Shown in pieces: positions 40,970 to 57,933 of a stretch of DNA of 64,000 nt (its first letter is position 1; each line of letters starts with the position of its first letter). The notes under the pieces are model-generated. The model worked only from the letters and a program-made list of their open reading frames with translations, did no database searches and had not been told where the DNA came from. Origin of the DNA: Candidatus Omnitrophota bacterium (lineage in GTDB: Bacteria > Omnitrophota > Gorgyraeia > Gygaellales > Profunditerraquicolaceae); assembly GCA_050012075.1 (NCBI GenBank), contig JBEKHW010000003.1, positions 14,690 to 78,689 of the forward strand, read 5' to 3'. Both the position numbers and the translations under genes were made by a program.

Positions 40970-42268
40970 TTAAACCTTACGGAATACCGCGGCGGCGTTG
41001 TAGCCGGCAAAGCCGCAGGAGAGTTTCATTACGGTGGTAAGCTTTTTATTTTGTTGTTTACGGATAAGGTTTATGTTGTAGCGGCTGTCAAAATCATCGC
41101 AGTTTAAAGAAGCGGGGATTATCCCGTTTTGTAGCGCAAGGATCAGGATTATTGACTCAAGGATTGCGCTACCACCCAGGTTATGGCCCACATAGGGTTT
41201 AAACGCGGAAACAGGGGTTTTATTGCCGAACATATTCGTAATTGCCTTTGCTTCGTATTGGTCGGTTATTTTGATACCTACACCGTGGGGGTTGATTAAA
41301 TCTATATCTTGCGCTTTAATTTCACTATTTTTAAGAGCTCCCTCTATTGCTTTCCCGTAAGAATTACTTATCGGGTTAGGTAATATCAGCTTCCAGCCCT
41401 CAAGAGAGAATCCACCTCCCGTATATTCAGCATAAATATTGGCTCCTCTTTTTTTGGCATGATTCAACTCTTCAAGAAGAATGGCAGAGTATCCTTCGCC
41501 GAAAACTATCCCGTCTGCATTCTTGGAGAAGGGCTTAATCTTTCCGTCTTCAGCGTAAAGATTGCGTTCTTTAAACCATAGGTGTTTAAGCATGCCGGCA
41601 GGGTTATCCCCCCCTGCGATAATCGCTACGTCGGTATCTTTAAATTTGATTTGCGTGTAAGCGGCATCCAGGGCAAAAAGCCCGGAGGCACAGGCATTAT
41701 TGGTAAACAGGGAGTATCCGCGAAAGCCCATTGCCTTTGCTACCAGATATAGGTACATAAAGCTTTGCAGCTCCTGGCCGTAATCGGAAAACTTGCTGAA
41801 AAGGTGCTGATAGAAACCAAACTCCGACGGATTTTCCTTAAGCCGGGATTTTTCCTTAAAATAGTTTAATCCTTCTTTGGTGAGAGATTCGCAGAATGGC
41901 TCAAAGCCCGGGTGCTCTATTGTCAGGAAAAAGCCTATATTGTTATCATCACGGTTATAATCCAATCCGCTGTCTTTTAACGCTAGTTGAGTAGCGGCTA
42001 AAGGGTAAAGAAAATCATTATCTTCTCTTCCCTGCCTGAAGCCGGAGATTTCTTTGAGCACCTCTTTATCTATGCCGAAATTATTTATGTTAAAATCCTT
42101 AATCTTATGCATCCAGAAGCTGTCCCACAATTGCTTATCCAGGAAAATCTCTTCTTTATGAAGCCCGGATTTTTCCCCAAGGATAGATTTCCACAAAGCT
42201 TCTTTACCAAAACCAATGGCGCATAGCGGCCCCAATCCTGTTATTACAACTCTTCTTTCTTTAGGCAT
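40970..42268 (-). CDS. Beta-ketoacyl-[ACP] synthase family protein (active-site Cys present, atypical N-terminal insert)
   Basis: NNACASG (Cys), HGVG and VGHNLG (His) motifs. Confidence 0.75.
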   Translation of the reverse strand: MPKERRVVITGLGPLCAIGFGKEALWKSILGEKSGLHKEEIFLDKQLWDSFWMHKIKDFNINNFGIDKEVLKEISGFRQGREDNDFLYPLAATQLALKDSGLDYNRDDNNIGFFLTIEHPGFEPFCESLTKEGLNYFKEKSRLKENPSEFGFYQHLFSKFSDYGQELQSFMYLYLVAKAMGFRGYSLFTNNACASGLFALDAAYTQIKFKDTDVAIIAGGDNPAGMLKHLWFKERNLYAEDGKIKPFSKNADGIVFGEGYSAILLEELNHAKKRGANIYAEYTGGGFSLEGWKLILPNPISNSYGKAIEGALKNSEIKAQDIDLINPHGVGIKITDQYEAKAITNMFGNKTPVSAFKPYVGHNLGGSAILESIILILALQNGIIPASLNCDDFDSRYNINLIRKQQNKKLTTVMKLSCGFAGYNAAAVFRKV

Positions 42269-43472
42269 ATTTTTTAATCACAAGGGTAGCATTGTTTCCG
42301 CCGAATGCAAAGCCATTTTTTAAGGCGATGTTTACCTTTTTCTTTCTGGCAACGTTGGGGACGCAGTCAATATCGCATTCAGGGTCTGCTTCCTCAAAAT
42401 TTATAGTCGGCGGGATAATATCTTCTTTTACCGACAGGCAGCAGGCAGCCGCTTCGATTACAGAAGCAGCTCCCATCGCATGGCCAAGCGCTGATTTTAA
42501 GGCGGTCACCGGGATATCTCTATAGCGCTCCTTAAACACATTTTTTATGGCAAGGCACTCTGTTTTATCGTTAAGAGTGGTCCCTGTGCCGTGGGTGCTG
42601 ATATAATCCACGTCTTTATAACTTATATTACTTTCCCGCATCCCCTTCTCTATTGCTTTTGCTATACCTTCGGCGCTTGGGGCGGTAGGATGAAAGGCAT
42701 CGCAGGAGAGACCGTAACCTAATATTTCCGCGTAAATTGGCGCGTTTCTTTTTAAAGCCGAATCCAGGTCTTCAAGTAGCAGGGCTCCTGCCCCTTCACT
42801 TAACATCATACCTTTCCTGTTTTTATCAAAGGGCTGGCATTTTTCAGGCGCCATGGCATAAATACGCTGAAACCCCGCAAAGGCAAAATAAGAAAAAGAA
42901 TCACTGCCCCCGCAGAGAGCAAAATCAAGCTCTCCGTTTTTTATAAGATCGAAGCCATAACCGATAGCATAATTTCCCGCGGCGCAGGCAGTAGGAAAAA
43001 GGTAATTCGGTCCCTTAATCTTAAAATGCAGGCCTACGTTGGCGGAGATATTGTTGACCCCGGACTGCATTATTCTTTGCCTGTCCACATCCTTAAGCCC
43101 TCCCTTTGCCCAAACCTGCATCAGCTCTTCAAGCGGCTTTTCTCCGTTTGTAGTCCCCATAAAAACTCCGGTTTTTGATTTCGGCAGATTTTTCAGGGGA
43201 AGCATCGCGTCAGTTATGGCTAAAGAGGAAGCGGCAATGGCAAATTGCGAAGCCTTGCCCAGGAATTTTATTCTCCTTTTCGGGATAAATTCTTCCGGCT
43301 TGAAATTTCTTACCTCTCCTCCCCTATGGCACCTGAAGGCGCTGGTATCAAAACTGGTTACTTCGCTTATCCCGGATTTACCGGAAATGACAGAACGCCA
43401 GAATTGCTCCTTGCCGATTCCTACGGACGAAACAACTCCTATACCAGTAACTACTACTCTCCTTTTATCCAT
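42261..43472 (-). CDS. Beta-ketoacyl-[ACP] synthase II-like (FabF-like)
   Basis: TACAAG Cys, STHGTGT and LGHAMGAA His motifs. It overlaps both neighbours. Confidence 0.8.
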   Translation of the reverse strand: MDKRRVVVTGIGVVSSVGIGKEQFWRSVISGKSGISEVTSFDTSAFRCHRGGEVRNFKPEEFIPKRRIKFLGKASQFAIAASSLAITDAMLPLKNLPKSKTGVFMGTTNGEKPLEELMQVWAKGGLKDVDRQRIMQSGVNNISANVGLHFKIKGPNYLFPTACAAGNYAIGYGFDLIKNGELDFALCGGSDSFSYFAFAGFQRIYAMAPEKCQPFDKNRKGMMLSEGAGALLLEDLDSALKRNAPIYAEILGYGLSCDAFHPTAPSAEGIAKAIEKGMRESNISYKDVDYISTHGTGTTLNDKTECLAIKNVFKERYRDIPVTALKSALGHAMGAASVIEAAACCLSVKEDIIPPTINFEEADPECDIDCVPNVARKKKVNIALKNGFAFGGNNATLVIKKYA

Positions 43473-43908
43473 TTTTTGGTTTAACCCCGAAAGTTAAACT
43501 TGCCTTTGCCACTAGTTTATCCCCGACACGCGCGACGGCGTCAACCACTCCTGCGGTATCCATAACTTTCACGCAAGATACTTCCAGAATAAGTTTATCT
43601 CCCGGAAACACTGGCGCCCTGAATTCAGCTTTTACCCTGCCCAGGTAATAAATGGGATGCGCCTCGGCGATTTTGGGCTTACGCACATAATAAAGGATTA
43701 TTGCAGTTTGGGCCATTGCTTCTACGATAAGCACCCCAGGCATAACGGGATTGCCTGGAAAATGGCCGCGGAAAAAATCTTCATTATGCCTAACATACTT
43801 TGCCGCTGTTACTTTATCCTGGTTCTCGACCGCTATTACTTCGTCTATAAGCAGGAATGGGTCGCGGTGCGGAAGGATTGTTTTTATTTTTTCTTTATCC
43901 CAGAGCAT
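43465..43908 (-). CDS. 3-hydroxyacyl-[ACP] dehydratase FabZ-like
   Basis: [11 protein letters not shown]...[20 protein letters not shown]. Confidence 0.8.
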
Positions 43909-43913
43909 ACTCG

Positions 43914-44159
43914 TTACTCCTTTTTGGCGTTTTTAAAATAATCAATTATTTGTTTCAAATTCCTGATTTTGGGGATATCTTTCTCCGGAACGATAATCTT
44001 ATACTTTTTTTCAAAAGCAGCCACAATCTCAATTGCCTTAAGTGAATCTACTCCAAGCTCTGTAAAGAAATCCGCCTCGGGAGTAAGCTTTTCAACCGGC
44101 ACCTCGGTAATCTCTGAAACCATCTGCGTTAGTTCTAAATCAATATTCTCGTTCGCCAT
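43914..44159 (-). CDS. Acyl carrier protein
   Basis: 81 aa with the LGVDSL phosphopantetheine attachment motif. Confidence 0.8.
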
Positions 44160-44170
44160 TTTTTTCTCCC

Positions 44171-45418
44171 TTAGCTGTGGGTATGCCGGGATATGACGGC
44201 AGAGGCGTTATTGCCTCCCGGCCCAAAATTATTGATTAAAATATTATCGACTTTACACTTGCGCGCGCCTGTAGTGACATAATCAAGGTCGCAGTCATCA
44301 TCTTTTTCTTTGTAATTTATGGTCGGAGGTATAAAACCCTGCTCAATGCTCCCTAACGAAGAGATAATCTGGAATATCCCGGAGGCGCTAAAACTTTCTC
44401 CGATCATGGACTTGATGGCGCTGACCGGTATTTTTAAGGCAGCGCTGTTAAACACTTCTTTTATTGCCATAGTCTCCAGTTTATCCTGTATGACTACGGA
44501 ATTAGCCGCCGCGTTTATATAACTTATTTTTTCTTTATCTATACCGGAGTTATTTAAGACGGAAGAAATGCAATTTTTCAGGCCCTCTGCTTCAGGAGAA
44601 TATTTTCCGCTACGGTAAGCGTCAAAGCAGCTTTTTGTGCTTTTTATGCTCGCGTAAATCTTTGCCCCTCTTTTTAAGGCGTCGTCTTCGTTTTCAATCA
44701 GGATAACGCCGGCGCCTTCTCCTAAAATAATCCCGTTCCTGCGCTTGTCAAACGGGCAGCATATTTCTTCTCCTTTTATTCCGGCAAGGAATTCAATTTT
44801 ATGGAATCCGGCAAAACTCTGAAAAGACAATCCCTCAAGCCCGGCGAGCAGTATCGCCTTTGCCTTACCCCACTTTATAAAGTCAACGGCGTATTTTAAG
44901 GCATCTAAGCTTGCGGTAAATCCGGTAGATATAGTGGTGTTAAAACCTTTAATCTTAAACCAGATGGAGACCTGGCTTGAAGGCGCGTTCATTGTGGTGG
45001 CGGGAAATATAGCCGGGTTTACGAATTGAGGGCCGTCCTGTTCCGCCTCTTTACTGAATTCCGCTATATTCCACATTGCCGATAAAGTCGTTGCCGTAAC
45101 TACACCTATATCATCAGTATTACCTTCATTAATGTTGAGATTTGCGTCATCAAGGCAGAGTTTTACCGCGGAGCATAGGAACCTGGTGCTGCGGTCAAGG
45201 TTACGTAGCCCCTTGGGCCCCAGAAATTTTTCCGCTTCAAAATCAGGCACTTCCCCGGCAAGGTGCGCTTTAAAAAGCACCGGGTCAAATACGGTAATCG
45301 GCCTTATTCCTGAGCGGCCTTCTTTTAAGGCCTGCCAGAACTCTTCTTTGCCTATCCCGATAGGCGATACTACCCCTATGCCGGTTATAACCGCTTTATT
45401 ACTAGCAGAATTATCCAC
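44171..45418 (-). CDS. Ketosynthase-like protein lacking the catalytic Cys and both His residues (chain-length-factor-like)
   Basis: It aligns to the KS fold, but the active-site positions read STGFTAS (Cys to Phe), INAAANS (His to Ala) and IGESFS (His to Glu). Confidence 0.75.
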   Translation of the reverse strand: MDNSASNKAVITGIGVVSPIGIGKEEFWQALKEGRSGIRPITVFDPVLFKAHLAGEVPDFEAEKFLGPKGLRNLDRSTRFLCSAVKLCLDDANLNINEGNTDDIGVVTATTLSAMWNIAEFSKEAEQDGPQFVNPAIFPATTMNAPSSQVSIWFKIKGFNTTISTGFTASLDALKYAVDFIKWGKAKAILLAGLEGLSFQSFAGFHKIEFLAGIKGEEICCPFDKRRNGIILGEGAGVILIENEDDALKRGAKIYASIKSTKSCFDAYRSGKYSPEAEGLKNCISSVLNNSGIDKEKISYINAAANSVVIQDKLETMAIKEVFNSAALKIPVSAIKSMIGESFSASGIFQIISSLGSIEQGFIPPTINYKEKDDDCDLDYVTTGARKCKVDNILINNFGPGGNNASAVISRHTHS

Positions 45419-46163
45419 TTTGTATTGATAACCCTCCGTCGATAACTAATGTTTGTCCTGTGATATAATTTGCCGCGTCACTTATCAGGAATTTTACTGC
45501 TTTCGCCACTTCTTCAGGCCTGCCGAATCTTCTTAAGGGTATATGTTTCATCAGCCCATCTTTCAGTGGTTCTTTGAGTCCGCTTACCATATCGGTTTCA
45601 ATGAAACCAGGGGCAACAGCATTTACCCTTATCCCGTATTTAGCTACTTCCCTTGCCAGGGATCTGGTAAAGCCGATTATCCCTGCTTTTGACGCGGCAT
45701 AATTGGTTTGCCTGGCAACCCCTGTTATCCCGCTTATCGAAGATATATTCACGATTATGCCGCTGTTTTGTTTTATCATGCCGGTTATTACCGCGCGGGT
45801 AAGGTTAAAAACACCTCCGAGGTTAGTGTCTATCACTTTCTGCCAGTCATTTTTTTCCATAAATGCCAGCGCCTTATCGTTGATTATCCCGGCATTATTT
45901 ATTACGATATCAAGCCCGCCGAAAGTTTTCTTTGTTTCTTCAACCCAGGCCGTAACGGCGTCAAAATCGCTGATATCTACGCGTGATGCCTTGGTTTTTA
46001 TTCCTAACCGCGTAATCTCGGCTAAAAGTTTATCCGCCTCTTCTTTATTATTCAGGTAGCTAAAGGCAATATTCAGGCCTTGGCGGGCTAACTCCAATGC
46101 AATCTGCCTGCCTATGCCCCTGCTTGCCCCGCTTACAATCGCTATTTTATTTTTTAAGTCCAT
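45411..46163 (-). CDS. fabG: 3-oxoacyl-[ACP] reductase (SDR)
   Basis: IAIVSGASRGIGRQIA, NNAG, and a YAASKAG catalytic triad. Confidence 0.85.
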   Translation of the reverse strand: MDLKNKIAIVSGASRGIGRQIALELARQGLNIAFSYLNNKEEADKLLAEITRLGIKTKASRVDISDFDAVTAWVEETKKTFGGLDIVINNAGIINDKALAFMEKNDWQKVIDTNLGGVFNLTRAVITGMIKQNSGIIVNISSISGITGVARQTNYAASKAGIIGFTRSLAREVAKYGIRVNAVAPGFIETDMVSGLKEPLKDGLMKHIPLRRFGRPEEVAKAVKFLISDAANYITGQTLVIDGGLSIQSG

Positions 46164-46539
46164 CGGTATCTATATTCCTCCTGACTGCTTCCAGAAAATC
46201 ATGGGTATCAAAGGGTTTTAATATGTATTCGGCGACTTTAAGGTCAAGCGCGTTTTTATAACTTTGCTCGTCGGCGTAGCCGGTAATCAGTATTTCTTTT
46301 ACCGGCGGCTTACCGGAGTCTTTGAGCGCCTGGCGTATCTTTTTAATCGTCTCTATGCCGTCTAAATGTGGCATCCTGATATCGCATACTATCAAATCCA
46401 GCTCTGTGGTTCTTGATTTTTCCGCCGCGTCCTCCCCATCGGCGGCAACCATGGCATTGTAGCCCTCTTTTTGCAAAAGCTTATGCAGCGTCTTGGTTAT
46501 CAGTCCCTCATCGTCGATTATTAAAATATTCTTTCCCAT
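46147..46539 (-). CDS. Single-domain response regulator receiver
   Basis: ILIIDDEG and LIVCDIRMPHLDG motifs, no output domain. Confidence 0.8.
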   Translation of the reverse strand: MGKNILIIDDEGLITKTLHKLLQKEGYNAMVAADGEDAAEKSRTTELDLIVCDIRMPHLDGIETIKKIRQALKDSGKPPVKEILITGYADEQSYKNALDLKVAEYILKPFDTHDFLEAVRRNIDTDGLKK

Positions 46540-46540
46540 T

Positions 46541-48709
46541 CTAACTCTCCTTCTTCGGCAGGGATACCGTAAAGACCGAGCCCCTTCCTTCTTCTGAATG
46601 AACGGTAATCGTCCCTTTATGCTTATTTATTATTGTTTGACAAATAGACAGCCCTAACCCGGTTCCTTTTCCCACTTCTTTTGTGGTAAAGAAAGGGTCG
46701 AATATTTTCGGCATTGTCGCTTTCGGTATGCCCATTCCTTCATCTTTAACCGACATATGGATCCACTTGCCGTTTTTTGAAAGCGATATGCAGACCTCTC
46801 CGGTTTTTTTAACTGCCCTGATCGCGTCGCGGGCGTTTAAAACCATATTTGTAAGCACCTGTTCCAGTTCATGTTGATTGCCGTTGACCAGATAATCGTC
46901 TTTTTTGGCGTCGATAATTATGCCGACGTTTTCCTGGTGGAGTTGATAGCCCAGGAACGCTTCCGCATCCTTGATTACATCCAGCAGGTTTACTTCTGAA
47001 AAAGGAGTGTCTTCAAGGGGTTTCTTGGCATAAGCCATGAGTTTCTGGACGATGGTGCGGCAACGCTTGGTGGCTTCTTCGATAAGCCCCAGAGATTCTT
47101 TTGAATCCGCGTCCAGGTTAGTCCTTTCGTCGATAAGCATCTGGACGTTAGTGAGAATCGCAGTCAGAGGGTTATTGATTTCATGCGCGACTCCTCCTGC
47201 CAGGGTACCTACGGTAGCAAGTTTCTCCGCATGGGTGAGTTGTTTTTGCACGTCAACTAATTCTTTAGTACGTTGCCTTACCTGCTCTTCTATATTTTCA
47301 TAAAGAAGTGAATTTGAGATGGCAATCGTCGCCTGGTTTTTCAGTGTCCTTAAGAAATGCAGTTCTGCCGCGTCGTAACGTTTAAGGTTTGATTTCCTCG
47401 CCAGGTTTATTACGCCAAGAAGTTTCTCGTTAAGGATAACAGGTATGATTACGACAGCTCCTGTAAGGTTGAAATATTCTCTTGCCCTGTCTTTTATGGA
47501 TGAATAAATTGGGTCTATCTCGATAAAATCGCGATGTAGTATCTTATCTCTTTTTGCAAGCCATGACAGGAATTCACTTTCCGTGCTCATTCGCGTGATT
47601 TTACTTTGGTTTGTGCTGGCATTAGCCAATATGTACTCTTTCCTCTGTTCGTTATAAATCAGTATATCTATATGTTGAGGGTAAAGCGTATCGTAAATAG
47701 TAGATTCAATGCGTTGGATGAGCTGGTTTAGGCCTTTCAGGTGCACGAGGTCTTCGGTAAACTTACGCGCGATTTCATCAAGGTCAGCCTGCCTCCTCTG
47801 GAAAAAATGGTCGATCTTTGGTTGTATTTCGCGTAAATACAGCGCCAATATCAGGAAGCCGGCAAGCCAGAATAACGTCTCAAGTAGAGACGAACCTTGT
47901 ATATACGGATAGGCCCATCGGTAGATAAGAAAAAGCGGTATTATTGCCAGGGAGAATGTAAGCAGCCACATCGTGGTTTTATGGATAACCGTCTCTATAT
48001 CAAAGGTCCGGTATTTGACGATGGAATAGGCAACTATCAGGATATAAATAAGCATCGAGATATATCCGAATGGATATAAAGGGTAATGTAAGAATTTCGG
48101 TACGAAGTCAAGGGATGCGGTAAATGCGATGAGCGTGGCTATGGTTACCACCTGCATCTGCCTTTTTTTTGCCGGAAGAGTTTCTTTTCTGTAGGAAAGA
48201 TAGAGCTTCCCGAAGCCCGCAAAGAACTGGAAGGCGAAAAACCCCAGGAATAATATCGTCTCCGGACGGTAAACAGGGTAATATCCCCAGAAATATCTTG
48301 TCGCGGTATAGGGCAGAATGAATTTATCCGTGGTCACGGCCAGAAAATAAAACAGGAAAGATATGCCGTAATTTAAGAGGACTAGCGCCTTCTTCTCTTC
48401 AAATTCCTGCGACCAGGCAACCGCGAACAGGTAGACACTGGGCATTATATTCACTACACCGAAGAAGGTAAAATAACGGTACCAGAAAAGAGCGGTTTCC
48501 GGAGCACGGCTTGAATAGACCACGGAACTCATAAGAAGCCAGAAGGTGACGCTAAAACACTGCAGGAAGAAAGCTATGTTTATGATTGATTTTCTGTTTT
48601 GGGCCAGGACAAAAAGGCCGATAAAAATAATGACCGCGCTTACTGAAAATACCGCAAGCGCGTAAGGGTTGAAATAGTAGCTTGAGATCTGAAGAAGAGG
48701 GTTATGCAT
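46541..48709 (-). CDS. Sensor histidine kinase (multi-TM sensor, GAF, HisKA, HATPase_c), a paralog of the 34392-36575 kinase
   Basis: H-box HAEKLATVGTLAGGVAHEINNPL and G-box GTGLGLSI. Confidence 0.8.
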   Translation of the reverse strand: MHNPLLQISSYYFNPYALAVFSVSAVIIFIGLFVLAQNRKSIINIAFFLQCFSVTFWLLMSSVVYSSRAPETALFWYRYFTFFGVVNIMPSVYLFAVAWSQEFEEKKALVLLNYGISFLFYFLAVTTDKFILPYTATRYFWGYYPVYRPETILFLGFFAFQFFAGFGKLYLSYRKETLPAKKRQMQVVTIATLIAFTASLDFVPKFLHYPLYPFGYISMLIYILIVAYSIVKYRTFDIETVIHKTTMWLLTFSLAIIPLFLIYRWAYPYIQGSSLLETLFWLAGFLILALYLREIQPKIDHFFQRRQADLDEIARKFTEDLVHLKGLNQLIQRIESTIYDTLYPQHIDILIYNEQRKEYILANASTNQSKITRMSTESEFLSWLAKRDKILHRDFIEIDPIYSSIKDRAREYFNLTGAVVIIPVILNEKLLGVINLARKSNLKRYDAAELHFLRTLKNQATIAISNSLLYENIEEQVRQRTKELVDVQKQLTHAEKLATVGTLAGGVAHEINNPLTAILTNVQMLIDERTNLDADSKESLGLIEEATKRCRTIVQKLMAYAKKPLEDTPFSEVNLLDVIKDAEAFLGYQLHQENVGIIIDAKKDDYLVNGNQHELEQVLTNMVLNARDAIRAVKKTGEVCISLSKNGKWIHMSVKDEGMGIPKATMPKIFDPFFTTKEVGKGTGLGLSICQTIINKHKGTITVHSEEGRGSVFTVSLPKKES

Positions 48710-50273
48710 TAACGGCTTCCTTTATACTTTCTACCATCGCAGTATCTATCTGTTTATGCCCCCAGTAGAAATCCGCGAGGACAAAACCGTGTTTTTCTCC
48801 GAGCGACTTTATCTCCTGCATCTTTTCAGGGGTGATATTTCCCCTTCCGAAGCTGAAGTTTTCATAACGTTTTTCAAGGGCAAGTATTATTGATTCGGAA
48901 AAACATCCGTAAAGGGCGTTGGTAGCGGGAAGGCCCACGTCAATGGGAAAAAGAATCGACGTAGGAGGTTTGCTTAATCCTCCGGAAAAAATGAAAATAT
49001 CCTTTCTGTCCGTCGGGGTGTAAGAGATATTTTTCGGGTATCCTACGTCGCAGATTATTGAGCCGGACTTAAACCAATCAACTTTCAGTATTGAAGAAGT
49101 GGCGCTTGCCGCTGAAATCACAATATCCGCATCCCTTACAGCTGCTTGGTTGTCGGTAGTCGCCACAATTTTAGCTTTTCTATGGCGGGAAAGCTCTTTG
49201 TTCATACGTGTAAGGTTAATCTTGGTCCTGCCGGTTATGGTAAGCTGCCTTACTTTATCCGTAAGGACCCTGGCGCAGGCGCTTCCGATATCGCCGGTCC
49301 CGCCTACTACAGCTATTTTTAATCCGGAGATATCTTTCCCCATGAGTTTAGTTGCTTTTAGCACCCCTTCTACTGCCATGGCCGCGGTAAAACTATTTCC
49401 TGTCGTCACCGCGACATCCACCTGTTCAGCTATCTCCTGGCCCACTCTTTCTGCCACAATAGAAGTGAATCCACCAAGGGTAACTATCCCCACGCCTTTT
49501 TTCTCCGCGAGCTTACAGGCCTTGACTACTTTGGAGAATACGACCCAGATATCTTTTTCTATCATATCTGGGATGAAGGTAGCGATTATAAACGTCCCGT
49601 TAACAGAATCTCCGGTTTTAGATTTGAAATCCAGGATGTCGTAAAGTTTAAATGACGGCGTAAGGTGGAAAAGTTGCCCGAGGAATTCTCGGGAAGGAAG
49701 TTTTATCCCAGGATTCAACACATGGAAACAGCTTTCCAGGTGATGATAATTATAAAGATGGCCGATAATTCCGAAACCGGCGATTTTTTCCGTATTCCCT
49801 TTCCTGTAACTTATGTATTTCAGTGATATGAGTTTTCTTTCTATCGCCTCAAGGATCGCTTCAAAACTCAAAACGATAAGTTTCCTTATATAATTATCGG
49901 CGAAATCCTTTATCGCTGGCACCCCGACCCTAAGGTGCACTATCACCGATACTTCTGTGCCTTCCGGATGCGGGCTAAAGCGCCATTCCCCGCTAAATTC
50001 TTCCAGGTCACCTTCTTTTAAGCGGAAAGAAATCTTATTTTGATTCAATTCCAGAGTATCCTCTTCTACCCAACTTATCGGCACTTTGTCTACCTGGATG
50101 CGCCACTTAGTAACCATTTTATTCCCGCTCTTGTTAAGTACCGTTGCCTCTCTAACAGAGGGTATAAAGGAAGGAAATTCCCAGACCCGGGTTAAGATAC
50201 GTATTACGCGCCATTTCTCGGCGGGTATTACGCGCGAAACTCTTATCTCTAGTAATTCGTTATCCGGCATCAA
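48702..50273 (-). CDS. SRPBCC (START/Bet v1-like) domain fused to a long-chain acyl-[ACP] reductase (cyanobacterial AAR, COG5322) homolog
   Basis: The C-terminal roughly 370 aa match the AAR block pattern: FGIIGHLYNYHHLE, TLGGFTSIV, TTGNSFTAAMAV, a Rossmann motif IAVVGGTGDIGSA, GYPKN, and FSFGRGNITPEKMQEI...HGF. The N-terminal roughly 145 aa is SRPBCC-like. Confidence 0.7.
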   Translation of the reverse strand: MMPDNELLEIRVSRVIPAEKWRVIRILTRVWEFPSFIPSVREATVLNKSGNKMVTKWRIQVDKVPISWVEEDTLELNQNKISFRLKEGDLEEFSGEWRFSPHPEGTEVSVIVHLRVGVPAIKDFADNYIRKLIVLSFEAILEAIERKLISLKYISYRKGNTEKIAGFGIIGHLYNYHHLESCFHVLNPGIKLPSREFLGQLFHLTPSFKLYDILDFKSKTGDSVNGTFIIATFIPDMIEKDIWVVFSKVVKACKLAEKKGVGIVTLGGFTSIVAERVGQEIAEQVDVAVTTGNSFTAAMAVEGVLKATKLMGKDISGLKIAVVGGTGDIGSACARVLTDKVRQLTITGRTKINLTRMNKELSRHRKAKIVATTDNQAAVRDADIVISAASATSSILKVDWFKSGSIICDVGYPKNISYTPTDRKDIFIFSGGLSKPPTSILFPIDVGLPATNALYGCFSESIILALEKRYENFSFGRGNITPEKMQEIKSLGEKHGFVLADFYWGHKQIDTAMVESIKEAVNA

Positions 50274-50853
50274 GCATTCCTTTTATTGCGTTCCTGACTT
50301 TAAACATGCCTTCCTGCAAATATATATCTTCAATGATGTCTTCCATTTCTTTAAGCATGTATATAGGCCTACCTACCTTTACCTTCAAGGGGAAAAGTTT
50401 CGGTAATTTTGCCGTTATGGGATAAGCCTCGAAAGTCCCTAAGATTGCCGCGGGCACAATGGGCCTGCCTGTTTTTATGGCTAAAAGCGCTGCCCCCCTC
50501 CTGAATTCCAGAAGTTTTCCTTCGTGGCTTACTCCGCCTTCAGGAAAGATACCGACGTTGCGGTTTTTAAGCAGTAATTCCAGGGCTTTATTAGAAGCGC
50601 TCCCCCCGGGAAGAGCCTCGCTTACATGCAAAAACCATTTTAGCAAGGGTATCCCGTAAAGCATCCTCATGGCTATGCAATGCACTTTTACGGGAAGCGC
50701 CACCATCATTACTAAAGGGTCCAGATAACTATTGTGGTTTGCCACGATGATAAAGTTACTTTTCTTAGGTAAATTTTCCAGCCCTTCAACCTTTAGCCTG
50801 AAAAATAATTTGAAAATAGGGGTAAAAAATGTTTTAAATATCCAGTACCACAT
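50260..50853 (-). CDS. PlsC-family acyltransferase (1-acyl-sn-glycerol-3-phosphate acyltransferase-like)
   Basis: NHNSYLDP (HX4D variant) and FPEGG motifs. The start is taken at the internal Met MWYWIFK. Confidence 0.7.
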   Translation of the reverse strand: MWYWIFKTFFTPIFKLFFRLKVEGLENLPKKSNFIIVANHNSYLDPLVMMVALPVKVHCIAMRMLYGIPLLKWFLHVSEALPGGSASNKALELLLKNRNVGIFPEGGVSHEGKLLEFRRGAALLAIKTGRPIVPAAILGTFEAYPITAKLPKLFPLKVKVGRPIYMLKEMEDIIEDIYLQEGMFKVRNAIKGMLDAG

Positions 50854-50857
50854 GTTT

Positions 50858-51769
50858 TTATAACAACGGCGCCTCAGGCACCCAGATTTCAAAGCCATGC
50901 CGTGCCGCGATATCAGCTATCTCCTCAAGGTTGTCCGGGTTTATAGCGTTGCCTAAATAATTCAGGAAAAACTTTTTTGCCAGGGTTAAAAGTATTGTTT
51001 CTGCAAGCTGAGTCCGGATAACAGCCCGCGGAAGGCGAGTCCTTATTTTTGAATCTAACGGATAAGGCAATTTTACCAATCCGCTCCTGATGCGGGCTAT
51101 GTCGTTACGGATTCCTTCGCGGGGTATCCCGTTACCAGAAAATAGTTCACAAAGGATTGCCCCGGGTTTCATCTTATCTATAATGTCGGCTGTTTTATCA
51201 AGGCATGCCGCAAGGTTTACGGCAATGTCCGCTTCGTTAATCGATTCGGCGGGCCTACCCGCGTAATTTGATAATTTTTTTTCACAGAGTCTACCCAGGA
51301 CACTTTCCCTTCCATTGATATAAAAAGACAGGTTTTTAATCTCCTTATCTTTTATCCTGACATAGCGGTAAAGCGCCTCAAGGACCGACCAGGCAGTGAA
51401 TGCGTTTCCGTCGGTAACGGTTACTTTTATTTTTTTGCTTATTTTATCGTGTATTTTTTCGGCAACGCAAGAGAGATGCTCATCCAGGCCTATCACTGCC
51501 ACTCCCAGCTTTTCGCAAAAAATAAGCGTATCTATAAGCAGGTTTTGTGAGTCCGTATCTGTGGCGCAAAGTCGTGGGCATAATACAATGTAGCCGGTTA
51601 TTTCTTCTCCTTGAAGTGATTTTATACCTTTAATATACCCTACCTTTATGGGCTTGTTTCTCTTTAGTATTGTTTTTATGATAAAAGACGGCAATAACCG
51701 CACAGAAGGCCAGATATCCTTTATATTCTCTATAGTCCCAGGGCTAACTATATAGGCAAAAGTGTCCAT
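50858..51769 (-). CDS. AAR/COG5322-like paralog lacking the NAD(P)-binding glycine motif
   Basis: It shares blocks with the neighbouring AAR homolog (VTVTDGNAFTAWSVLEAL, and a C-terminal ...PDNLEEIADIAARHGF), but the GxGxxG position reads FYINGRESVLGRL. Confidence 0.5.
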   Translation of the reverse strand: MDTFAYIVSPGTIENIKDIWPSVRLLPSFIIKTILKRNKPIKVGYIKGIKSLQGEEITGYIVLCPRLCATDTDSQNLLIDTLIFCEKLGVAVIGLDEHLSCVAEKIHDKISKKIKVTVTDGNAFTAWSVLEALYRYVRIKDKEIKNLSFYINGRESVLGRLCEKKLSNYAGRPAESINEADIAVNLAACLDKTADIIDKMKPGAILCELFSGNGIPREGIRNDIARIRSGLVKLPYPLDSKIRTRLPRAVIRTQLAETILLTLAKKFFLNYLGNAINPDNLEEIADIAARHGFEIWVPEAPLL

Positions 51770-51784
51770 ATTCGTTTCCTGTCG

Positions 51785-52000
51785 TTAGGCGCTCTCAATA
51801 AGCGATTTCCGTCTTTCTTTTGGCTGGAGGACGTAACTGGATTTTTCTTTAATCCATCTCTCGATATATTTCTTATGGAATCGCCAGTCAGTGCCGATTT
51901 TGAACGCCGGGATTTTTCCCTCCCTGGCATACTTGTGCACTGTGAGAGGATGAATCTTCAGATATTCCGCAACCTCTTTTGCAGTCAGAATTTCTTTCAT
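51785..52000 (-). CDS. Excisionase-family (MerR-superfamily) HTH DNA-binding protein
   Basis: 71 aa with LTAKEVAEYLKIHPLTVHKYAREGKIPAFKIG, the TIGR01764-type HTH. Confidence 0.65.
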   Translation of the reverse strand: MKEILTAKEVAEYLKIHPLTVHKYAREGKIPAFKIGTDWRFHKKYIERWIKEKSSYVLQPKERRKSLIESA

Positions 52001-52144: not shown

Positions 52145-52387
52145 CTACTTCTCTTCCTCTTCCACTATCCCTAACACAGCGCCTACAGTTACGGTGTCTC
52201 CTTCGTGAAAGACAATTTCTCTGAGTATACCGTCACAGGGGCTGGTGACATTGAAAGTTGCCTTGTCTGTGGTGATTTCAACCACGTCTTCTTTCTCGTT
52301 GACGCTATCACCTTCCGTACGCATCCAGTAGGAAACCGTTGCTTTCTCAATACCTTCGCCTAATTCTGGTAAAATAATCTTTGTCAT
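52145..52387 (-). CDS. Stand-alone biotin/lipoyl attachment domain protein
   Basis: MTKIILPELGEGIEKATV...ITTDKATFNVTSP, a lipoyl-lysine motif. The start is taken at the internal Met. Confidence 0.7.
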   Translation of the reverse strand: MTKIILPELGEGIEKATVSYWMRTEGDSVNEKEDVVEITTDKATFNVTSPCDGILREIVFHEGDTVTVGAVLGIVEEEEK

Positions 52388-52401
52388 CTTTTGCCTACCT
52401 T

Positions 52402-53082
52402 TCAATAGACAGCAGGACAAGGATGGTTTTCAGCGTAAAATACAGCTGTCCCTAGTTTATAAACCGCTTTGATTTCAGAAATCAGGGATTTCTTGACATC
52501 ATCTATATCTATTTTTCTGCGCAAAATATCTTCCAGGGATGTCATTTCTATATCCATTCCGCATGGCCGTATCAGGCGAAAATTCCCAAGGTCGTCACTT
52601 GTGACGTTTATGCTCATCCCGTGAAAAGTAACCCAGTTTTTAACGGCGATACCGATGGATGCGAGTTTACGGTTTCTAAACCATACGCCGGTTAATCCGG
52701 CTTTTCTTTCTGCTTCTACCCCAAAACTTGCGGCAACCTTTAATGCCACCTCTTCCAGTGACCTCAGGAACCAATGAAGGTCTTTCTTCAGGAACTCCAG
52801 GTTAAATACAGGATAAGCCGTAACCTGCCCCGGGCCATGATAGGTAAAATCGCCGCCTCTTTCTACTTTATAAACCCTTATCCCTTTCTCCCTGGCATTC
52901 TTTTCCGTGGCTAAAATATTTTTTATACCCGCACTTCTGCCCCAGGTAAATACCGGGTAATGCTGACAGATAACCAGGTTGAAAGGGAAAGGGGAATTAA
53001 CAGTTTCTAGCAAAAGCTTTTTCTGAAAATCCCATGATTCCTGGAAATGAGTTACCCCCAGGTCAAATATCCTTATCTCCAT
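52402..53082 (-). CDS. lipB: Lipoyl(octanoyl) transferase
   Basis: RGGDFTYHGPGQ and KLASIGIAV LipB motifs. The start is taken at MEIRIFDLG. Confidence 0.8.
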   Translation of the reverse strand: MEIRIFDLGVTHFQESWDFQKKLLLETVNSPFPFNLVICQHYPVFTWGRSAGIKNILATEKNAREKGIRVYKVERGGDFTYHGPGQVTAYPVFNLEFLKKDLHWFLRSLEEVALKVAASFGVEAERKAGLTGVWFRNRKLASIGIAVKNWVTFHGMSINVTSDDLGNFRLIRPCGMDIEMTSLEDILRRKIDIDDVKKSLISEIKAVYKLGTAVFYAENHPCPAVY

Positions 53083-54370
53083 AAGCTGCTTCCTGTATTG
53101 CCTCAGATAAAGTCGGATGGGCAAAAATAGTATTTTTAAGAGCGGTGATCCCTAATCCTGAAGAGATTGTTAGTGTCAGGATATTTATAAGTTCTGTTGC
53201 GGCCGGGCCGATGATAGAAGCCCCGAGAAGCTGAGCCGTGTTCTTATCCGCAATTATTTTTATAAAGCCCTCTGCCTCTTCTTTAATCCTTGCCATTCCG
53301 TTTCCCAGGAAATCAAACCTGTAAATTTTGGCGTCTATATTGTTTTTAGCAGCCGTATCTTGGTCCATACCGACAAATGCAATCTCCGGGTCAGTAAAAA
53401 TACAGTTAGGCACCGCGTTATTTTGGGCCTTCTGCGGCTTATCCGGGCAAGAGATGTTATACGCGGCTAGTATTCCCTGGTAGCGCGCAAAATGCGCAAG
53501 CATTATCCGGCTGCTACAATCACCGGCAGCATAAATACTCGATATATTCGTCCTTAAATAATCATCAACTATGATCCTGCCCTTCTCGGTCTTTATCCCC
53601 AGATCTTCCAGGCCCAGTCCCGAGGTATCAGGAATTCTACCTACGCAAACAAGTATCTTTGCATAATTATTGACACCAAACCCGGAGGCATCCGTATTTG
53701 TATGGACCAGTATATTTTTCTTCTTAAAGATTATCTCAAGCTTCTTAGCTACCTCTTTATCTAAGCCGGGAAGTAACTGCGGCATTTTTTCAACCAGGGT
53801 TACTTTTACTCCGAAAGCGGAAAATAGCCCTGCGAATTCGCAGCCGATAACTCCCCCGCCTATGATTAAGATTGAATCCGGCATTTCCTGTAAGTTTAGG
53901 ATGTCTGTACTAGAGAGTATTTTCTTCCCGTCAAATCTAAAAGATGGCAGCTCAAAAGGCCGTGAGCCGGTGGCAATAAGAATATTCTTTGTTTTTAAAA
54001 TTTTGCCGTCAACTTTTATCTCCTCCGGAGACAGTATCCCGGCTCCGGAGTTTATAAAATCCACGCCTTTAGAGATAAACTGCATACCTTGGCGTAACTG
54101 CGCGACTATTTTTTCTTTGCGTGCCTGGATTTTCTGGAAATCAAACCTATACTCTTTTGTTTCTATGCCAAAAATCTGGGATTTCTTGATTGAGGTGTAT
54201 ATTTTTGCGGACTGGATAAGTGTTTTAGTGGGGATACATCCGGTGTTCAGGCAGGTTCCGCCAAGGAGTGCCTTTTCTATCAGGCAGGCTTTTAGGCCCA
54301 GTTTTTTAGCTTTTAATGCTGCATTAAAACCTGCCCAACCTGACCCGATTACACAAAGGTCATAATCCAT
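53063..54370 (-). CDS. lpdA: Dihydrolipoyl dehydrogenase
   Basis: YDLCVIGSGWAGF FAD motif, a GGTCLNTGCIPTK redox disulfide, an NAD-binding domain and a dimerisation domain. Confidence 0.85.
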   Translation of the reverse strand: MDYDLCVIGSGWAGFNAALKAKKLGLKACLIEKALLGGTCLNTGCIPTKTLIQSAKIYTSIKKSQIFGIETKEYRFDFQKIQARKEKIVAQLRQGMQFISKGVDFINSGAGILSPEEIKVDGKILKTKNILIATGSRPFELPSFRFDGKKILSSTDILNLQEMPDSILIIGGGVIGCEFAGLFSAFGVKVTLVEKMPQLLPGLDKEVAKKLEIIFKKKNILVHTNTDASGFGVNNYAKILVCVGRIPDTSGLGLEDLGIKTEKGRIIVDDYLRTNISSIYAAGDCSSRIMLAHFARYQGILAAYNISCPDKPQKAQNNAVPNCIFTDPEIAFVGMDQDTAAKNNIDAKIYRFDFLGNGMARIKEEAEGFIKIIADKNTAQLLGASIIGPAATELINILTLTISSGLGITALKNTIFAHPTLSEAIQEAAYGDKDI

Positions 54371-55296
54371 TAGAATAGTGGTTTAAGTGCCTCTTGGTTC
54401 TTTCTGACTGATTGAGCGGATTTACCAAAAGCTTCTTTTTCCTTGCTGTTAAGCTCAAGCTCTATAACTTTTTCTATTCCATTTCTTCCTATACGGCAAG
54501 GTAGCCCAATACAAATATCTTTCATACCGTACTCGCCGGTAAGATACGCGCATACACCTATAGTGCGTTTTTCATCCTTTGCGATTGCCTTGACCAGGAC
54601 CGCCGCGGCAGCCGAAGGAGCAAAATATGCGCTACCGCTACCTAATGCCGCGACGATTTCGGCTCCCCGGTTCACTGTTTTCTTGACGAGCGCCCCTATT
54701 TTTTCATCATCCATAAATTCCCCTAACTCCACACCCTTTATTTTCGTAAAACGCGGTAAAGGCAACATTTCTTCTCCGTGCGCTCCGATAACACAGGGCT
54801 CTATTTGGCTGGGTGCTACATTTAATTCTTTGCTGATAAGATTTGTAAAGCGGCTGGCATCAAGGCTTATCCCCATCCCTATAACTTTTTTGGGGCTAAA
54901 TCCCGTCGCCTTTAAAACAAAATAAGTCATAAGGTCAAGTGGGTTGGTCACTACTACAATTACTGCTTTCGGAGAAAGCTCTTTTATACTAGCACAGATG
55001 CCTTTTAAGATCTGCGCATTCTTTGCCAATAGTTCTTCTCTTGTCATTCCCGGTTTACGGGCGAGTCCCGCGGTAATAACTATGATATCGGAATCTTTTA
55101 TCCGGGTTATATCCTCACTGCCTTCCAGGCGGTAATTTAGCCGGCTCAAGAACTGCGCGTCTTCCATATCCATGGCTTTGCCATGGGCTAGCCCTTTTGC
55201 TATATCAACAAGGACGATGTCGTCCAAACCCGCCTCAGCAAGCCGCATCGCTAAAAGGGCTCCAACGTTTCCAGCTCCGATTATAGATATTTTCAT
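54370..55296 (-). CDS. mdh: Malate dehydrogenase (LDH-like family)
   Basis: KISIIGAGNVG, ITAGLARKPGMTR and VTNPLD motifs. Confidence 0.8.
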   Translation of the reverse strand: MKISIIGAGNVGALLAMRLAEAGLDDIVLVDIAKGLAHGKAMDMEDAQFLSRLNYRLEGSEDITRIKDSDIIVITAGLARKPGMTREELLAKNAQILKGICASIKELSPKAVIVVVTNPLDLMTYFVLKATGFSPKKVIGMGISLDASRFTNLISKELNVAPSQIEPCVIGAHGEEMLPLPRFTKIKGVELGEFMDDEKIGALVKKTVNRGAEIVAALGSGSAYFAPSAAAAVLVKAIAKDEKRTIGVCAYLTGEYGMKDICIGLPCRIGRNGIEKVIELELNSKEKEAFGKSAQSVRKNQEALKPLF

Positions 55297-56378
55297 TTCT
55301 TGATTTTTGAAATAATAGCGTCGGCCATTACGCTCGTGCCTACAGCCGAGGGGTCTTTGGGATTGGGTTTTAAATCGTAAGTTACGGATTTTCCTTCTGC
55401 TATGATTTCTTTTACGGCCGCTTCTAACTTATTTGCTGCCGCTTCTTCTTTTATGTGCCTTAGCATCAATACCCCGGAAAGGATCATCGCAGTAGGATTA
55501 GCCTTATTCATACCTTTGTATTTTGGGGCAGAGCCATGCACTGCTTCAAATACCGCAGCCTTATCCCCAAGGTTCGCTCCAGGGGCAACTCCTAATCCTC
55601 CGACCAAGCCCGCGCAAAGGTCGGAAATGATATCTCCGTAAAGGTTAGGCAGAAGCAGGATATCGAAATTATGCGGTTTCTGGACCAGCTGCATCGCCAT
55701 ATTATCGACAAGCGCCTCTTCAAATAAGACTTTTCCTTCATACTGTTTTGCGACTTCCCTGGCAGTATTCAGGAATAGCCCGTCTGTGAACTTCATAATA
55801 TTGGCCTTGGTAACCACGGTTACTTTTTTGCGCCCAAGCCTTACGGCATACTCAAACGCAAAGGCAGCTATTCTTTGCGTTGCTGATTTTGAAATGGGCT
55901 TTATGGAAATCCCGGAATCAGGACGGATTTTTTTTCTTGATTTTTTTTCGATCTCTGCGATAAGCTCCAGGGTATCGGGGCTACCCTCTTCAAATTCAAT
56001 CCCCGCATACAGGTCTTCACTATTTTCGCGCACAATAATAAGGTCTATATCCTTGTAGCAGCTTTTTACGCCGGGATACGTCTTTGCCGGCCTAAGGCAG
56101 GCGTATAAATCCAGGGCATGCCTTATGGCTACGTTTACCGAGCGAAAACCTGTTCCGATAGGAGTAGTAATCGGCCCCTTAAGGCAGACTTTGTTTCTTT
56201 TTATTGATTCCAGGGTTTCCTGCGGCAATAATTCCCCGATTTTTTTAAGGGCCTCTTCTCCTGCAATCGCCTCTTCCCATTCAATTTTTACACCGGTTGC
56301 ATCAATACATCTTTTTGCGGCGAGGCTGACTTCAGGGCCGATACCGTCTCCGGGTATAAGGGTGATTTTGTGCGTCAT
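55293..56378 (-). CDS. Isocitrate/3-isopropylmalate dehydrogenase family protein
   Basis: ITLIPGDGIGPEV, NLYGDIISD and GSAPKYKG motifs. Icd versus LeuB cannot be resolved from the sequence alone. Confidence 0.75.
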   Translation of the reverse strand: MTHKITLIPGDGIGPEVSLAAKRCIDATGVKIEWEEAIAGEEALKKIGELLPQETLESIKRNKVCLKGPITTPIGTGFRSVNVAIRHALDLYACLRPAKTYPGVKSCYKDIDLIIVRENSEDLYAGIEFEEGSPDTLELIAEIEKKSRKKIRPDSGISIKPISKSATQRIAAFAFEYAVRLGRKKVTVVTKANIMKFTDGLFLNTAREVAKQYEGKVLFEEALVDNMAMQLVQKPHNFDILLLPNLYGDIISDLCAGLVGGLGVAPGANLGDKAAVFEAVHGSAPKYKGMNKANPTAMILSGVLMLRHIKEEAAANKLEAAVKEIIAEGKSVTYDLKPNPKDPSAVGTSVMADAIISKIKK

Positions 56379-56379
56379 C

Positions 56380-56880
56380 TTAGACCTTTAGTTCTCCGTA
56401 CTTCTTATAATAATTAATAATGCCGCCCGCATTAAGCAATTCCTGCATAAATTTGGGGAAAGCAGTTACGGAAAGTTCAACATTGCGGGAAAGATTCTTT
56501 ACAACCCCTTTATCAAGGTCAACTTCAACCTGGTCGGCCTCACCTATTTTGTCGGTGTCAGTTTCTACCAGTAGCAGGCCTATATTAAAAGCATTGCGGT
56601 AAAAAATCCTGGCGAATGACTTGGCTAATACCGCCGTAATTCCGGCTTCTTTTATTACGAGGGGAGCCTGCTCGCGCGAGGAACCCATTCCGAAATTTTT
56701 TCCTGTTACTAGAATGGTTTTTCCAGGCTTAATCTTGGAAGCAAATGCGGGGTCAATATCTTCCATAATATGCTTGCTCAGTTCTTTTATATCGGTGATA
56801 GCGAATTTATACCTTCCGGAAATAATAAAATCCGTGTTGATATTGTCTGCGAGTTTTATCGCTTCTCCAGATATCTTCAT
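56380..56880 (-). CDS. leuD: 3-isopropylmalate dehydratase small subunit (type 2)
   Basis: 166 aa with DNINTDFIISGRY and GKNFGMGSSREQAP motifs. Confidence 0.8.
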   Translation of the reverse strand: MKISGEAIKLADNINTDFIISGRYKFAITDIKELSKHIMEDIDPAFASKIKPGKTILVTGKNFGMGSSREQAPLVIKEAGITAVLAKSFARIFYRNAFNIGLLLVETDTDKIGEADQVEVDLDKGVVKNLSRNVELSVTAFPKFMQELLNAGGIINYYKKYGELKV

Positions 56881-57923: not shown

Positions 57924-57933
57924 AGTTTACCTC

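Follow-up and report, generated by a model that had tools for sequence, protein, structure and literature searches.

A phylum-wide SRPBCC–acyl-ACP reductase-like fusion protein of the Omnitrophota, encoded beside a seven-transmembrane histidine kinase: a possible lipid-signal circuit

The window analysed here, a stretch of 64,000 nucleotides (nt) from a Candidatus Omnitrophota bacterium (assembly GCA_050012075.1, contig JBEKHW010000003.1, positions 14,690 to 78,689), encodes a protein in which an SRPBCC/START-like lipid-pocket domain is fused to a homologue of the acyl-acyl carrier protein (acyl-ACP) reductase (AAR) of cyanobacteria. This fusion is phylum-wide in the Omnitrophota and is a new variant of a known reductase type, and its most constant partner is a seven-transmembrane (7TM)-GAF histidine kinase, which the first-pass annotation of the window had overlooked. 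Our working hypothesis, to which we assign a probability of about 45%, is that the reductase captures its aldehyde product in its own pocket and feeds a lipid-signal circuit centred on the kinase. AAR has been studied almost solely as one half of the cyanobacterial alkane pathway, in which the main difficulty, for mechanism and engineering alike, is how the insoluble aldehyde is handed over; the fusion is of interest for enzymology and for the production of fatty aldehydes, alcohols and amines in engineered hosts. The literature searched yielded no description of an SRPBCC–AAR fusion, of an acyl-ACP reductase in Omnitrophica/Omnitrophota, or of SRPBCC proteins linked to a histidine kinase.

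The fusion protein and its two domains

The first-pass annotation had placed an open reading frame (ORF) at 48702–50273 without naming a strand. The ORF exists and lies on the minus strand; the plus-strand reading of the same interval gives a translation riddled with stops. The likely start is the ATG at 50270, which yields 522 aa, since homologues begin with MPD... at the second codon. An assembly or frameshift artefact was ruled out, as an identical protein labelled ‘SRPBCC family protein’ occurs in an NCBI Candidatus Omnitrophota metagenome-assembled genome (MAG), more than 120 clusters (90% identity clustering) of equal length (~522 aa) are 64–82% identical to the query, and the fusion is kept in at least 137 species-level genomes. 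The last figure comes from a search with a single representative genome for each GTDB species, in which 137 genomes held a full-length relative at ≥45% identity; the search used an eight-sequence alignment, and 80 loci were retrieved. The presence of an SRPBCC plus AAR-like fusion in the window is therefore confirmed, far above chance.

The assignment of the C-terminal two-thirds to AAR rests on family models, pairwise searches and structure. The best NCBIfam match of the fusion is the long-chain acyl-ACP reductase TIGR04058 (aa 166–497, E=5.8e-51, 173.8 bits), and phmmer against PDB sequences returned the Synechococcus elongatus AAR 6jzq as best match over the same residues (E=7.5e-36), with PigE (4ppm) at E=1.7e-26. 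In an AlphaFold2 model built from 44 homologues, of moderate quality (pLDDT 76, pTM 0.66), this region has the three-domain AAR fold, matching 6jzq, 6jzy and 6jzz in Foldseek at E ~1e-21 and TM 0.75–0.79 (target-normalised). Identity to the cyanobacterial enzymes (PDB 6JZQ, 6JZU, 6JZY) is 29–31%, and the Cys position is common to both, together with the GxTGxIG, FG(L/I)IGH, LGGFTS, TTGN and GYPKN blocks; all the motif pairs quoted in the first-pass annotation are present in the 6jzq alignment (FGIIGHL, LGGFTSIV, TTGNSFTAA, VVGGTGDIGSA, VGYPKN and FSFGRGNITPEKM...HGF). Two checks that the annotation had proposed also came out in its favour. The nucleophile Cys294 of the S. elongatus enzyme (SeAAR; MFACFAEAM), which sits at the hinge of its substrate tunnel, aligns with C456 of the fusion (LYGCFSESI), and Cys is kept in 60 of the 61 fused family members; the NADPH-binding motif GGTGDIGS is found at aa 323–330 and is conserved across the family. 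G323, E459 and the H of the FGxIGH block are invariant in all 61 members, and T325, G326 and I328 are nearly so (57–60 of 61). Judged by its best hidden Markov model and structure matches, the C-terminal part belongs with AAR and not with the amino-acid dehydrogenases.

The first-pass interpretation is thus supported, with three qualifications, two of which are taken up below. The description ‘cyanobacterial-type’ AAR holds for homology and fails for orthology, because the TIGR04058 score falls far below the 449.7-bit equivalog cut-off and the N-terminal region (47–354) of the PigE model NF053554 matches the fusion equally well (171 bits, E=3.7e-50). By its sequence relationships, then, the fusion is an AAR-like thioester reductase and not the AAR of the alkane pathway. 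NAD(P)H-dependent thioester-reductase chemistry can be predicted for it with good confidence, and reduction of an acyl group to an aldehyde is inferred from the established chemistry of AAR and PigE.

The N-terminal domain was predicted to be a START/Bet v1-like pocket, a prediction borne out by Pfam, phmmer and Foldseek alike. Residues 8–145 match PF03364 (Polyketide_cyc; E=6e-15, 56 bits against a cut-off of 23.4), the domain also matches PF10604 (E=4e-10, 40.6 bits against 27.4), phmmer found 2d4r (E=1.6e-11), and the best structural match of the modelled domain is TTHA0849 (2D4R; TM 0.90, 24% identity). Membership of the SRPBCC superfamily is supported both by the helix-grip fold and by Pfam scores above the gathering threshold. 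The same fold is common to TTHA0849 and the Coq10- and RatA-type Polyketide_cyc proteins, from which the window domain differs in being covalently joined to an enzyme: a linker of ~15 residues connects it to the N terminus of the AAR domain.

Conserved pairing with a 7TM histidine kinase gene

To compare neighbourhoods, ORFs were called in the 80 species-representative loci and classed with profiles made from window proteins. A kinase was counted when it was a 7TM kinase of at least 600 aa, encoded on the strand of the fusion and within four ORFs of it, in loci with at least 3 kb of flank. By this measure the fusion is followed by a 7TM kinase in 56 of 58 loci, at position +1 in 28 of them, +2 in 19, +3 in 8 and +4 in 1. 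On the opposite flank, which served as control, the four nearest ORFs encode no such kinase in any of the 60 loci with at least 3 kb upstream. The conserved, co-oriented adjacency expected of a signal synthase and its sensor kinase is thus present (56/58 against 0/60). Where the two genes are adjacent, the median gap between them is −1 nt, and in the window the 3' end of the fusion gene and the start of the kinase gene overlap by 8 nt (AATGCATAA), the kinase ATG lying within the last fusion codons. The pairing also holds in four distant loci that were looked up individually, L005 to L008, whose fusions are 40%, 43%, 27% and 31% identical to that of the window. These comparisons make some functional coupling of the fusion to the kinase highly probable.

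No other neighbour is as constant. A gene for a PlsC-like acyltransferase lies directly upstream in 41 of the 45 loci of clade A (≥53% identity) against only 2 of the 28 loci of clade B (45–49% identity). Genes resembling those of fatty acid synthases (FAS) or polyketide synthases (PKS) occur in a minority of related loci; most fusion-bearing loci have no ketosynthase (KS) or chain-length-factor (CLF) genes nearby. The first-pass statement that the fusion ‘sits with its own KS/ACP set’ is correct for the window, but not as a constant feature: the KS/ACP genes are lineage-specific and the 7TM kinase is the invariant neighbour.

Between fusion and kinase the genes vary by lineage, and nearly all of them encode small-molecule tailoring enzymes (Table 1). 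In several species, receiver domains encoded in these clusters are fused to lipid enzymes, and the response regulators are without DNA-binding outputs. The fusions of receivers to lipid enzymes are unusual two-component outputs and suggest phosphorylation-controlled lipid enzymes in Omnitrophota. Other frequent neighbours are RND pumps, in clade B, and FadL/Toluene_X channels.

A second arrangement recalls the first. A 710-aa protein (L036:16040-18172) combines an SRPBCC domain with a LuxD-like acyltransferase and an S-adenosylmethionine (SAM) methyltransferase and is directly followed by a second 7TM histidine kinase, and in L006 a stand-alone SRPBCC protein is likewise directly followed by another 7TM kinase. 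The L036 protein appears to represent a parallel module of pocket, acyl off-loading enzyme and kinase, for which a fatty acid methyl ester would be the expected product. LuxD-like acyltransferases of related loci score 75 bits with NF052253. In the LuxCDE system, too, fatty aldehyde is made from acyl thioesters. LuxC has the aldehyde dehydrogenase (ALDH) fold and is not AAR-like; the loci described here differ further in having no luciferase and in the fusion of their LuxD-like proteins to methyltransferases or SRPBCC domains.

A proposed circuit and its main alternative

The near-obligate pairing with a 7TM kinase, the variable tailoring genes and the receiver–lipid-enzyme fusions together suggest a lipid-signal or lipid-sensing circuit. 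In the mechanism that we propose, Cys456 would take over an acyl chain from ACP, and reduction with NAD(P)H would turn this chain into a fatty or polyketide-like aldehyde. This insoluble product would pass into the fusion's own N-terminal SRPBCC pocket, which would take the place of a separate aldehyde-deformylating oxygenase (ADO). Hand-over of a hydrophobic product to the pocket is plausible by analogy with cyanobacterial AAR, which likewise must pass a water-insoluble aldehyde to a partner: the linker joins the pocket to the AAR N-terminal domain, the part that docks ADO in cyanobacteria, and the pocket may therefore receive the aldehyde. The lipid would then be altered by lineage-specific tailoring enzymes (in the window probably the PlsC-like acyltransferase) and serve as input to the 7TM-GAF histidine kinase encoded directly downstream, which would pass the signal to a receiver-only response regulator or, in other species, to receivers fused to lipid enzymes. 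The receiver–ALDH fusion could provide feedback on the aldehyde level; the receiver–KS fusion, as well as the order response regulator to FabG and KS in the window, could provide feedback on chain synthesis.

The enzymology of this account is well supported, and the signalling role is proposed from comparative genomics alone. A constant pocket-enzyme and sensor accompanied by variable tailoring genes and outputs is the pattern expected if the fusion stands on the input side; from synteny, we put slightly below even the chance that the 7TM kinase has this enzyme's product, or something derived from it, as its ligand. The lipid may act inside the cell, as a read-out of acyl-ACP or redox state or in membrane homeostasis, or between cells; a role as cell-to-cell signal seems to us rather improbable. 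There are known operons of similar logic. PhcB-PhcS-PhcR of Ralstonia, CqsA-CqsS, LqsA-LqsS and RpfF-RpfC each combine a fatty-acid-signal synthase with a membrane sensor kinase, and 3-OH fatty acid methyl esters (the Phc signals), CAI-1 and DSF are lipid signals that pass between cells. These systems, like the fusion loci, place a lipid-modifying synthase beside a polytopic histidine kinase and a response regulator, and in some related loci a methyltransferase or a CqsA-family oxoamine synthase lies between fusion and kinase. They differ in that their synthases are unrelated in sequence to the fusion and that HisKA_7TM is a different sensor family; the system described here is known from genes alone. 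More tentatively still, the Omnitrophota might hold an unrecognised class of lipid-signal modules, each composed of a START pocket, an acyl-ACP off-loading enzyme and a HisKA_7TM kinase, in which the fused pocket and enzyme would produce and escort a fatty-acyl-derived ligand of the kinase, an aldehyde, amine, alcohol or methyl ester according to the tailoring genes of the species, and the response regulators would act on lipid enzymes or second messengers. If the proposal is true, a first class of ligands could be named for the orphan HisKA_7TM sensor domain, and a phylum of ultra-small, often host-dependent bacteria would possess chemical communication or lipid sensing.

Several observations weigh against this proposal. 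The synteny fits equally well with a two-component system that regulates a lipid pathway without sensing its product, and the fusion of receivers to KS, HMG-CoA reductase and ALDH presents lipid metabolism as an output. The 45–49% clade lacks PlsC as well as the KS/ACP genes, so that the pathway of the window cannot be generalised. In the literature HisKA_7TM was found in domain censuses only, with no ligand given. The structural model is of only moderate confidence. A more distant fused family, with an additional N-terminal PilZ domain, also bears on the matter: in the PilZ-type locus L090 no kinase follows the fusion within the 3.2 kb available, and the PilZ-extended paralogues appear to be effectors controlled by cyclic di-GMP (c-di-GMP), so that the reading as an output stays alive.

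The best-placed alternative, in our view unlikely yet well ahead of the others, is that the fusion off-loads the operon's own type II FAS/PKS-like system in the synthesis of a structural lipid, the kinase and response regulator having only a regulatory part. The PlsC-like enzyme would then use the aldehyde, or an alcohol formed from it, to build a lipid of the membrane or for storage, for instance an acylated alcohol, a wax ester or a precursor of ether lipids; the SRPBCC domain would be a solubilising carrier, and the kinase might sense, for example, a membrane property. In the window the genes for the PlsC-like protein, fusion, kinase, response regulator, FabG and KS are translationally coupled, which suits such a pathway well, as do the constancy of the upstream PlsC-like gene in clade A, with the HX4D (H55NSYLD) and FPEGG motifs of its product intact, and the response regulators fused or adjacent to KS, HMG-CoA reductase and ALDH. 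There is also a precedent in KecF, in which an AAR-like domain releases a type II PKS product (PMC6498172). Beyond clade A the fit is poorer: clade B and the more distant members keep the fusion–kinase pair without PlsC and usually without FAS genes, and L008 is reduced to the fusion, the kinase and a response regulator–guanylate cyclase fusion. The tailoring genes are, moreover, too variable among species for a core membrane lipid, and a purely regulatory role sits poorly with response regulators that have no DNA-binding outputs.

Alternative roles of the individual domains

A catalytic role of the SRPBCC domain, as a polyketide cyclase, aromatase or dehydratase acting on the chain of the KS/CLF pair, either ahead of its reductive release or afterwards, in the manner of the TcmN and ZhuI aromatase/cyclases (ARO/CYC), seems to us quite improbable. 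The Pfam name Polyketide_cyc invites it, TcmN, ZhuI and WhiE ARO/CYC follow TTHA0849 among the Foldseek matches (TM 0.75–0.83), plant PYL receptors also being matched, and the operon has a KS, a CLF-like partner and an ACP. The polar residues R24, D88 and E144 are, furthermore, invariant among 44 close relatives, although D88 alone stays nearly invariant once distant members are added. Identity to the ARO/CYC proteins is only 15–16%, however, and the best match, TTHA0849, is a START protein of non-enzymatic type. The presence of FabG and FabZ implies a reduced chain and not a poly-beta-keto chain, and, as noted above, KS/CLF genes are missing from the neighbourhood of most fusion genes.

The relation to the alkane pathway turns on ADO. 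Homology to AAR is clear and the catalytic Cys is kept, and the fusion might in principle be a conventional AAR of the alkane pathway, with its ADO gene at another place in the genome. Besides the low equivalog score, the docking site speaks against this. In the N-terminal domain of SeAAR, R73, R79, K80 and R118 dock ADO beside the exit of the hydrophobic tunnel (PMC9743570). Three of these four basic residues are replaced in the fusion (R73 by D240, R79 by S246 and R118 by D285), K80 alone being retained, as K247, and the substitutions are conserved as such in the family. The first-pass claim that there is no ADO was upheld by tblastn, which found no homologue in the window or in 88 related loci (best E=1.8), a result that is indicative only. 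ADO requires O2, and Omnitrophota MAGs come mostly from anoxic settings. Taken together, these points leave the alkane-pathway explanation with very little probability. Compared with cyanobacterial AAR, the window protein is distinguished by its fused SRPBCC domain, its Omnitrophota host, its sensor-kinase neighbour and the altered docking site.

That AAR is normally a stand-alone enzyme paired with ADO, as the first-pass annotation had it, also needs to be qualified, for ADO-less AAR-like fusions were known already. PigE of prodigiosin biosynthesis has an AAR-like (COG5322) release domain fused to an aminotransferase and works without ADO (PMC8341465), and AAR-like reductive release domains are likewise fused to aminotransferases in TamH of tambjamine biosynthesis (PMC9594044) and in KecF of the koreenceine type II PKS (PMC6498172). 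The window protein has in common with these the release of a thioester as aldehyde by an AAR-like domain without ADO, but its partner is a lipid pocket of non-catalytic type and not a pyridoxal phosphate-dependent class III aminotransferase, and it has a kinase neighbour. No aminotransferase was found in the window protein or its operon. Only the distant locus L007 has a PigE-type aminotransferase, encoded by a gene of its own next to the fusion; such an enzyme needs an aldehyde or other carbonyl substrate, and fusion and aminotransferase would therefore recreate PigE in two pieces.

Directly upstream of the fusion of 40% identity, at L005:8962-9957, lies a gene for a soluble acyl-ACP desaturase (PF03405, E=4e-120). 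The desaturase is one of the di-iron, ferritin-like enzymes but no ADO, and its presence suggests that the acyl-ACP substrate is unsaturated in this lineage.

Equally little probability attaches to the alternative that the protein is no thioester reductase at all but a dehydrogenase of amino-acid or shikimate type, or else a fusion with a RatA-like toxin. This reading draws on the automatic names ‘predicted amino acid dehydrogenase / RatA’ and ‘shikimate dehydrogenase’, on COG5322 and on a Shikimate_DH-type Rossmann match in Pfam, and may be set aside, since the Rossmann matches are confined to aa 311–427, whereas the alignments with AAR and PigE extend across ~330 residues and take in the Cys, and since the RatA/PasT model NF007999 gives 28.4 bits against a cut-off of 258.

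Distribution of the family

Among 1.84 billion representatives, searched exhaustively, 311 proteins matched at E≤1e-30. Several 50%-identity clusters, down to 27–45% identity, share the SRPBCC-plus-AAR architecture, and the same search found many stand-alone AAR-like proteins of ~360 aa. According to GTDB titles and source names, almost all of the 80 retrieved loci are from Omnitrophota MAGs; stand-alone relatives, automatically named ‘shikimate dehydrogenase’, occur in Firmicutes, Armatimonadota, Endomicrobia and others. The second, more distant fused family carries an extra N-terminal PilZ or HTH_17-PilZ extension and belongs to Omnitrophota where its source is named. Its members are P0134–P0136 and P0276–P0287 (loci L089 and L090), and in P0134 HTH_17 itself is fused to SRPBCC–AAR. 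The PilZ domain implies a c-di-GMP input, and we infer from this that one branch of the family, at least, consists of regulated effectors. In L090 the gene of the PilZ-type paralogue is preceded by one for a FadL/Toluene_X channel and followed by genes for a GMC oxidoreductase and a PilZ-methyltransferase.

The operon in the window and its surroundings

The operon lies wholly on the minus strand, and most of its genes overlap or nearly abut their neighbours (Table 1). The module from HTH_17 to the third ketosynthase (KS3) spans 40970–52000, ~11 kb, a size that permits heterologous expression without culturing of the Omnitrophota, which lack a cultured model.

Table 1. Genes and domains of the operon in the window and variable genes of related loci. 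Plain coordinates are window positions; L numbers are related loci.
Feature	Position or locus	Strand	Details and basis
HTH_17 (excisionase/MerR-like) small DNA-binding protein, operon head	51785..52000	−	Pfam PF12728, E=5.7e-17
Stand-alone AAR paralogue, degenerate	50858..51769	−	303 aa; BLASTP, motif table
PlsC-like (LPLAT) acyltransferase, overlaps fusion start	50260..50898	−	212 aa; Pfam PF01553, E=2e-27
SRPBCC–AAR fusion gene	48702..50270	−	522 aa plus stop
SRPBCC/START-like lipid-pocket domain	49824..50249	−	aa 8–149; Pfam, phmmer, Foldseek
AAR-like thioester reductase domain	48720..49775	−	aa 166–517; TIGR04058, PigE model, 6jzq, Foldseek
GGTGDIGS NAD(P)H-binding glycine motif	49281..49304	−	aa 323–330; alignment, direct check
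Codon of predicted nucleophile Cys456 (= SeAAR Cys294)	48903..48905	−	alignment, direct codon check
Sensor histidine kinase, HisKA_7TM–GAF–HisKA–HATPase_c	46541..48709	−	HisKA_7TM at aa 24–238; Pfam
Receiver-only response regulator	46147..46539	−	130 aa; Pfam PF00072, E=1.8e-26
FabG-type 3-oxoacyl-ACP reductase, overlaps response-regulator gene	45411..46163	−	TIGR01830, 308.7 bits (cut-off 297.75)
KS1, ketosynthase fold without Cys-His-His, chain-length-factor-like	44171..45418	−	Pfam, motif inspection
Acyl carrier protein	43914..44159	−	Pfam PF00550, E=4.5e-15
FabZ-type 3-hydroxyacyl-ACP dehydratase	43465..43908	−	NF000582, 151 bits (cut-off 113)
KS2, FabF-like ketosynthase with Cys-His-His	42261..43472	−	family matches, motifs
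KS3, divergent ketosynthase with Cys-His-His	40970..42268	−	family match, motifs
Insert: GMC oxidoreductase	L001, L011, L015, L049		
Insert: B12-binding radical SAM protein	L021, L031		
Insert: short-chain dehydrogenase/reductase, ‘male-sterility’/thioester-reductase type	L013, L037, L047, L064		NAD_binding_4
Insert: formyltransferase	L037, L051		
Insert: BioF/Kbl/serine-palmitoyltransferase/CqsA-family oxoamine synthase	L051		
Insert: LuxD-like acyltransferase fused to methyltransferase	L041, L055		
Insert: ICMT/PEMT methyltransferase	L057		
Insert: adenylation–peptidyl carrier protein–acyltransferase (Aas-like)	L030		
PigE-like class III aminotransferase, gene after fusion	L007		439 bits to PigE model
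Insert: second, Cys-bearing AAR paralogue	related loci		
Receiver–ketosynthase fusion	L006:16622-18325		
Receiver–aldehyde dehydrogenase fusion, after kinases	L005:15464-17425		
Receiver–HMG-CoA reductase fusion	L082:15232-17043		
Receiver–guanylate cyclase fusion	L008		
Receiver–HD fusion	L007		

The kinase has about eight hydrophobic segments in aa 17–292. The window operon includes FabG and FabZ, but neither an enoyl reductase nor a malonyl transferase. The HTH_17 gene at the head of the operon is also present in L001 and L003.

The stand-alone AAR paralogue encoded between HTH_17 and the PlsC-like protein is 24% identical to the AAR domain of the fusion (BLASTP E=3e-19). Its Cys is replaced by Gln, GxGxxG is lost and the Rossmann region is shortened. 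A Cys-less paralogue stands 5' of PlsC in eight related loci that were aligned, with Ala or Ser at the Cys position, and nine distinct full-length upstream paralogues and one fragment are listed among related loci; AAR paralogues downstream of the fusion in other species retain the Cys. Given this contrast between Cys-less upstream and Cys-bearing downstream copies, the copy in the window seems to be a conserved pseudo-enzyme and, presumably, a partner with a structural or regulatory role.

Just after the lipid operon, at 39649–40906 on the minus strand, the gene for an AbiEii-type nucleotidyltransferase toxin (243 aa) overlaps that for an HTH_3 protein (186 aa), the two forming a type IV toxin–antitoxin pair. 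Upstream of the operon, at 52145–59286 and again on the minus strand, a run of central-metabolism genes encodes a lipoyl-domain protein, an LplA/B-like lipoate ligase, dihydrolipoamide dehydrogenase, malate/lactate dehydrogenase, isocitrate/isopropylmalate dehydrogenase and the small and large subunits of an aconitase-family enzyme, with a T2SSE/PilT-like ATPase inserted. In L001 a giant (>2,500 aa) SpvB/TcdB/RHS-repeat toxin-like protein is encoded ~5 kb upstream of the module (L001:1-5314).

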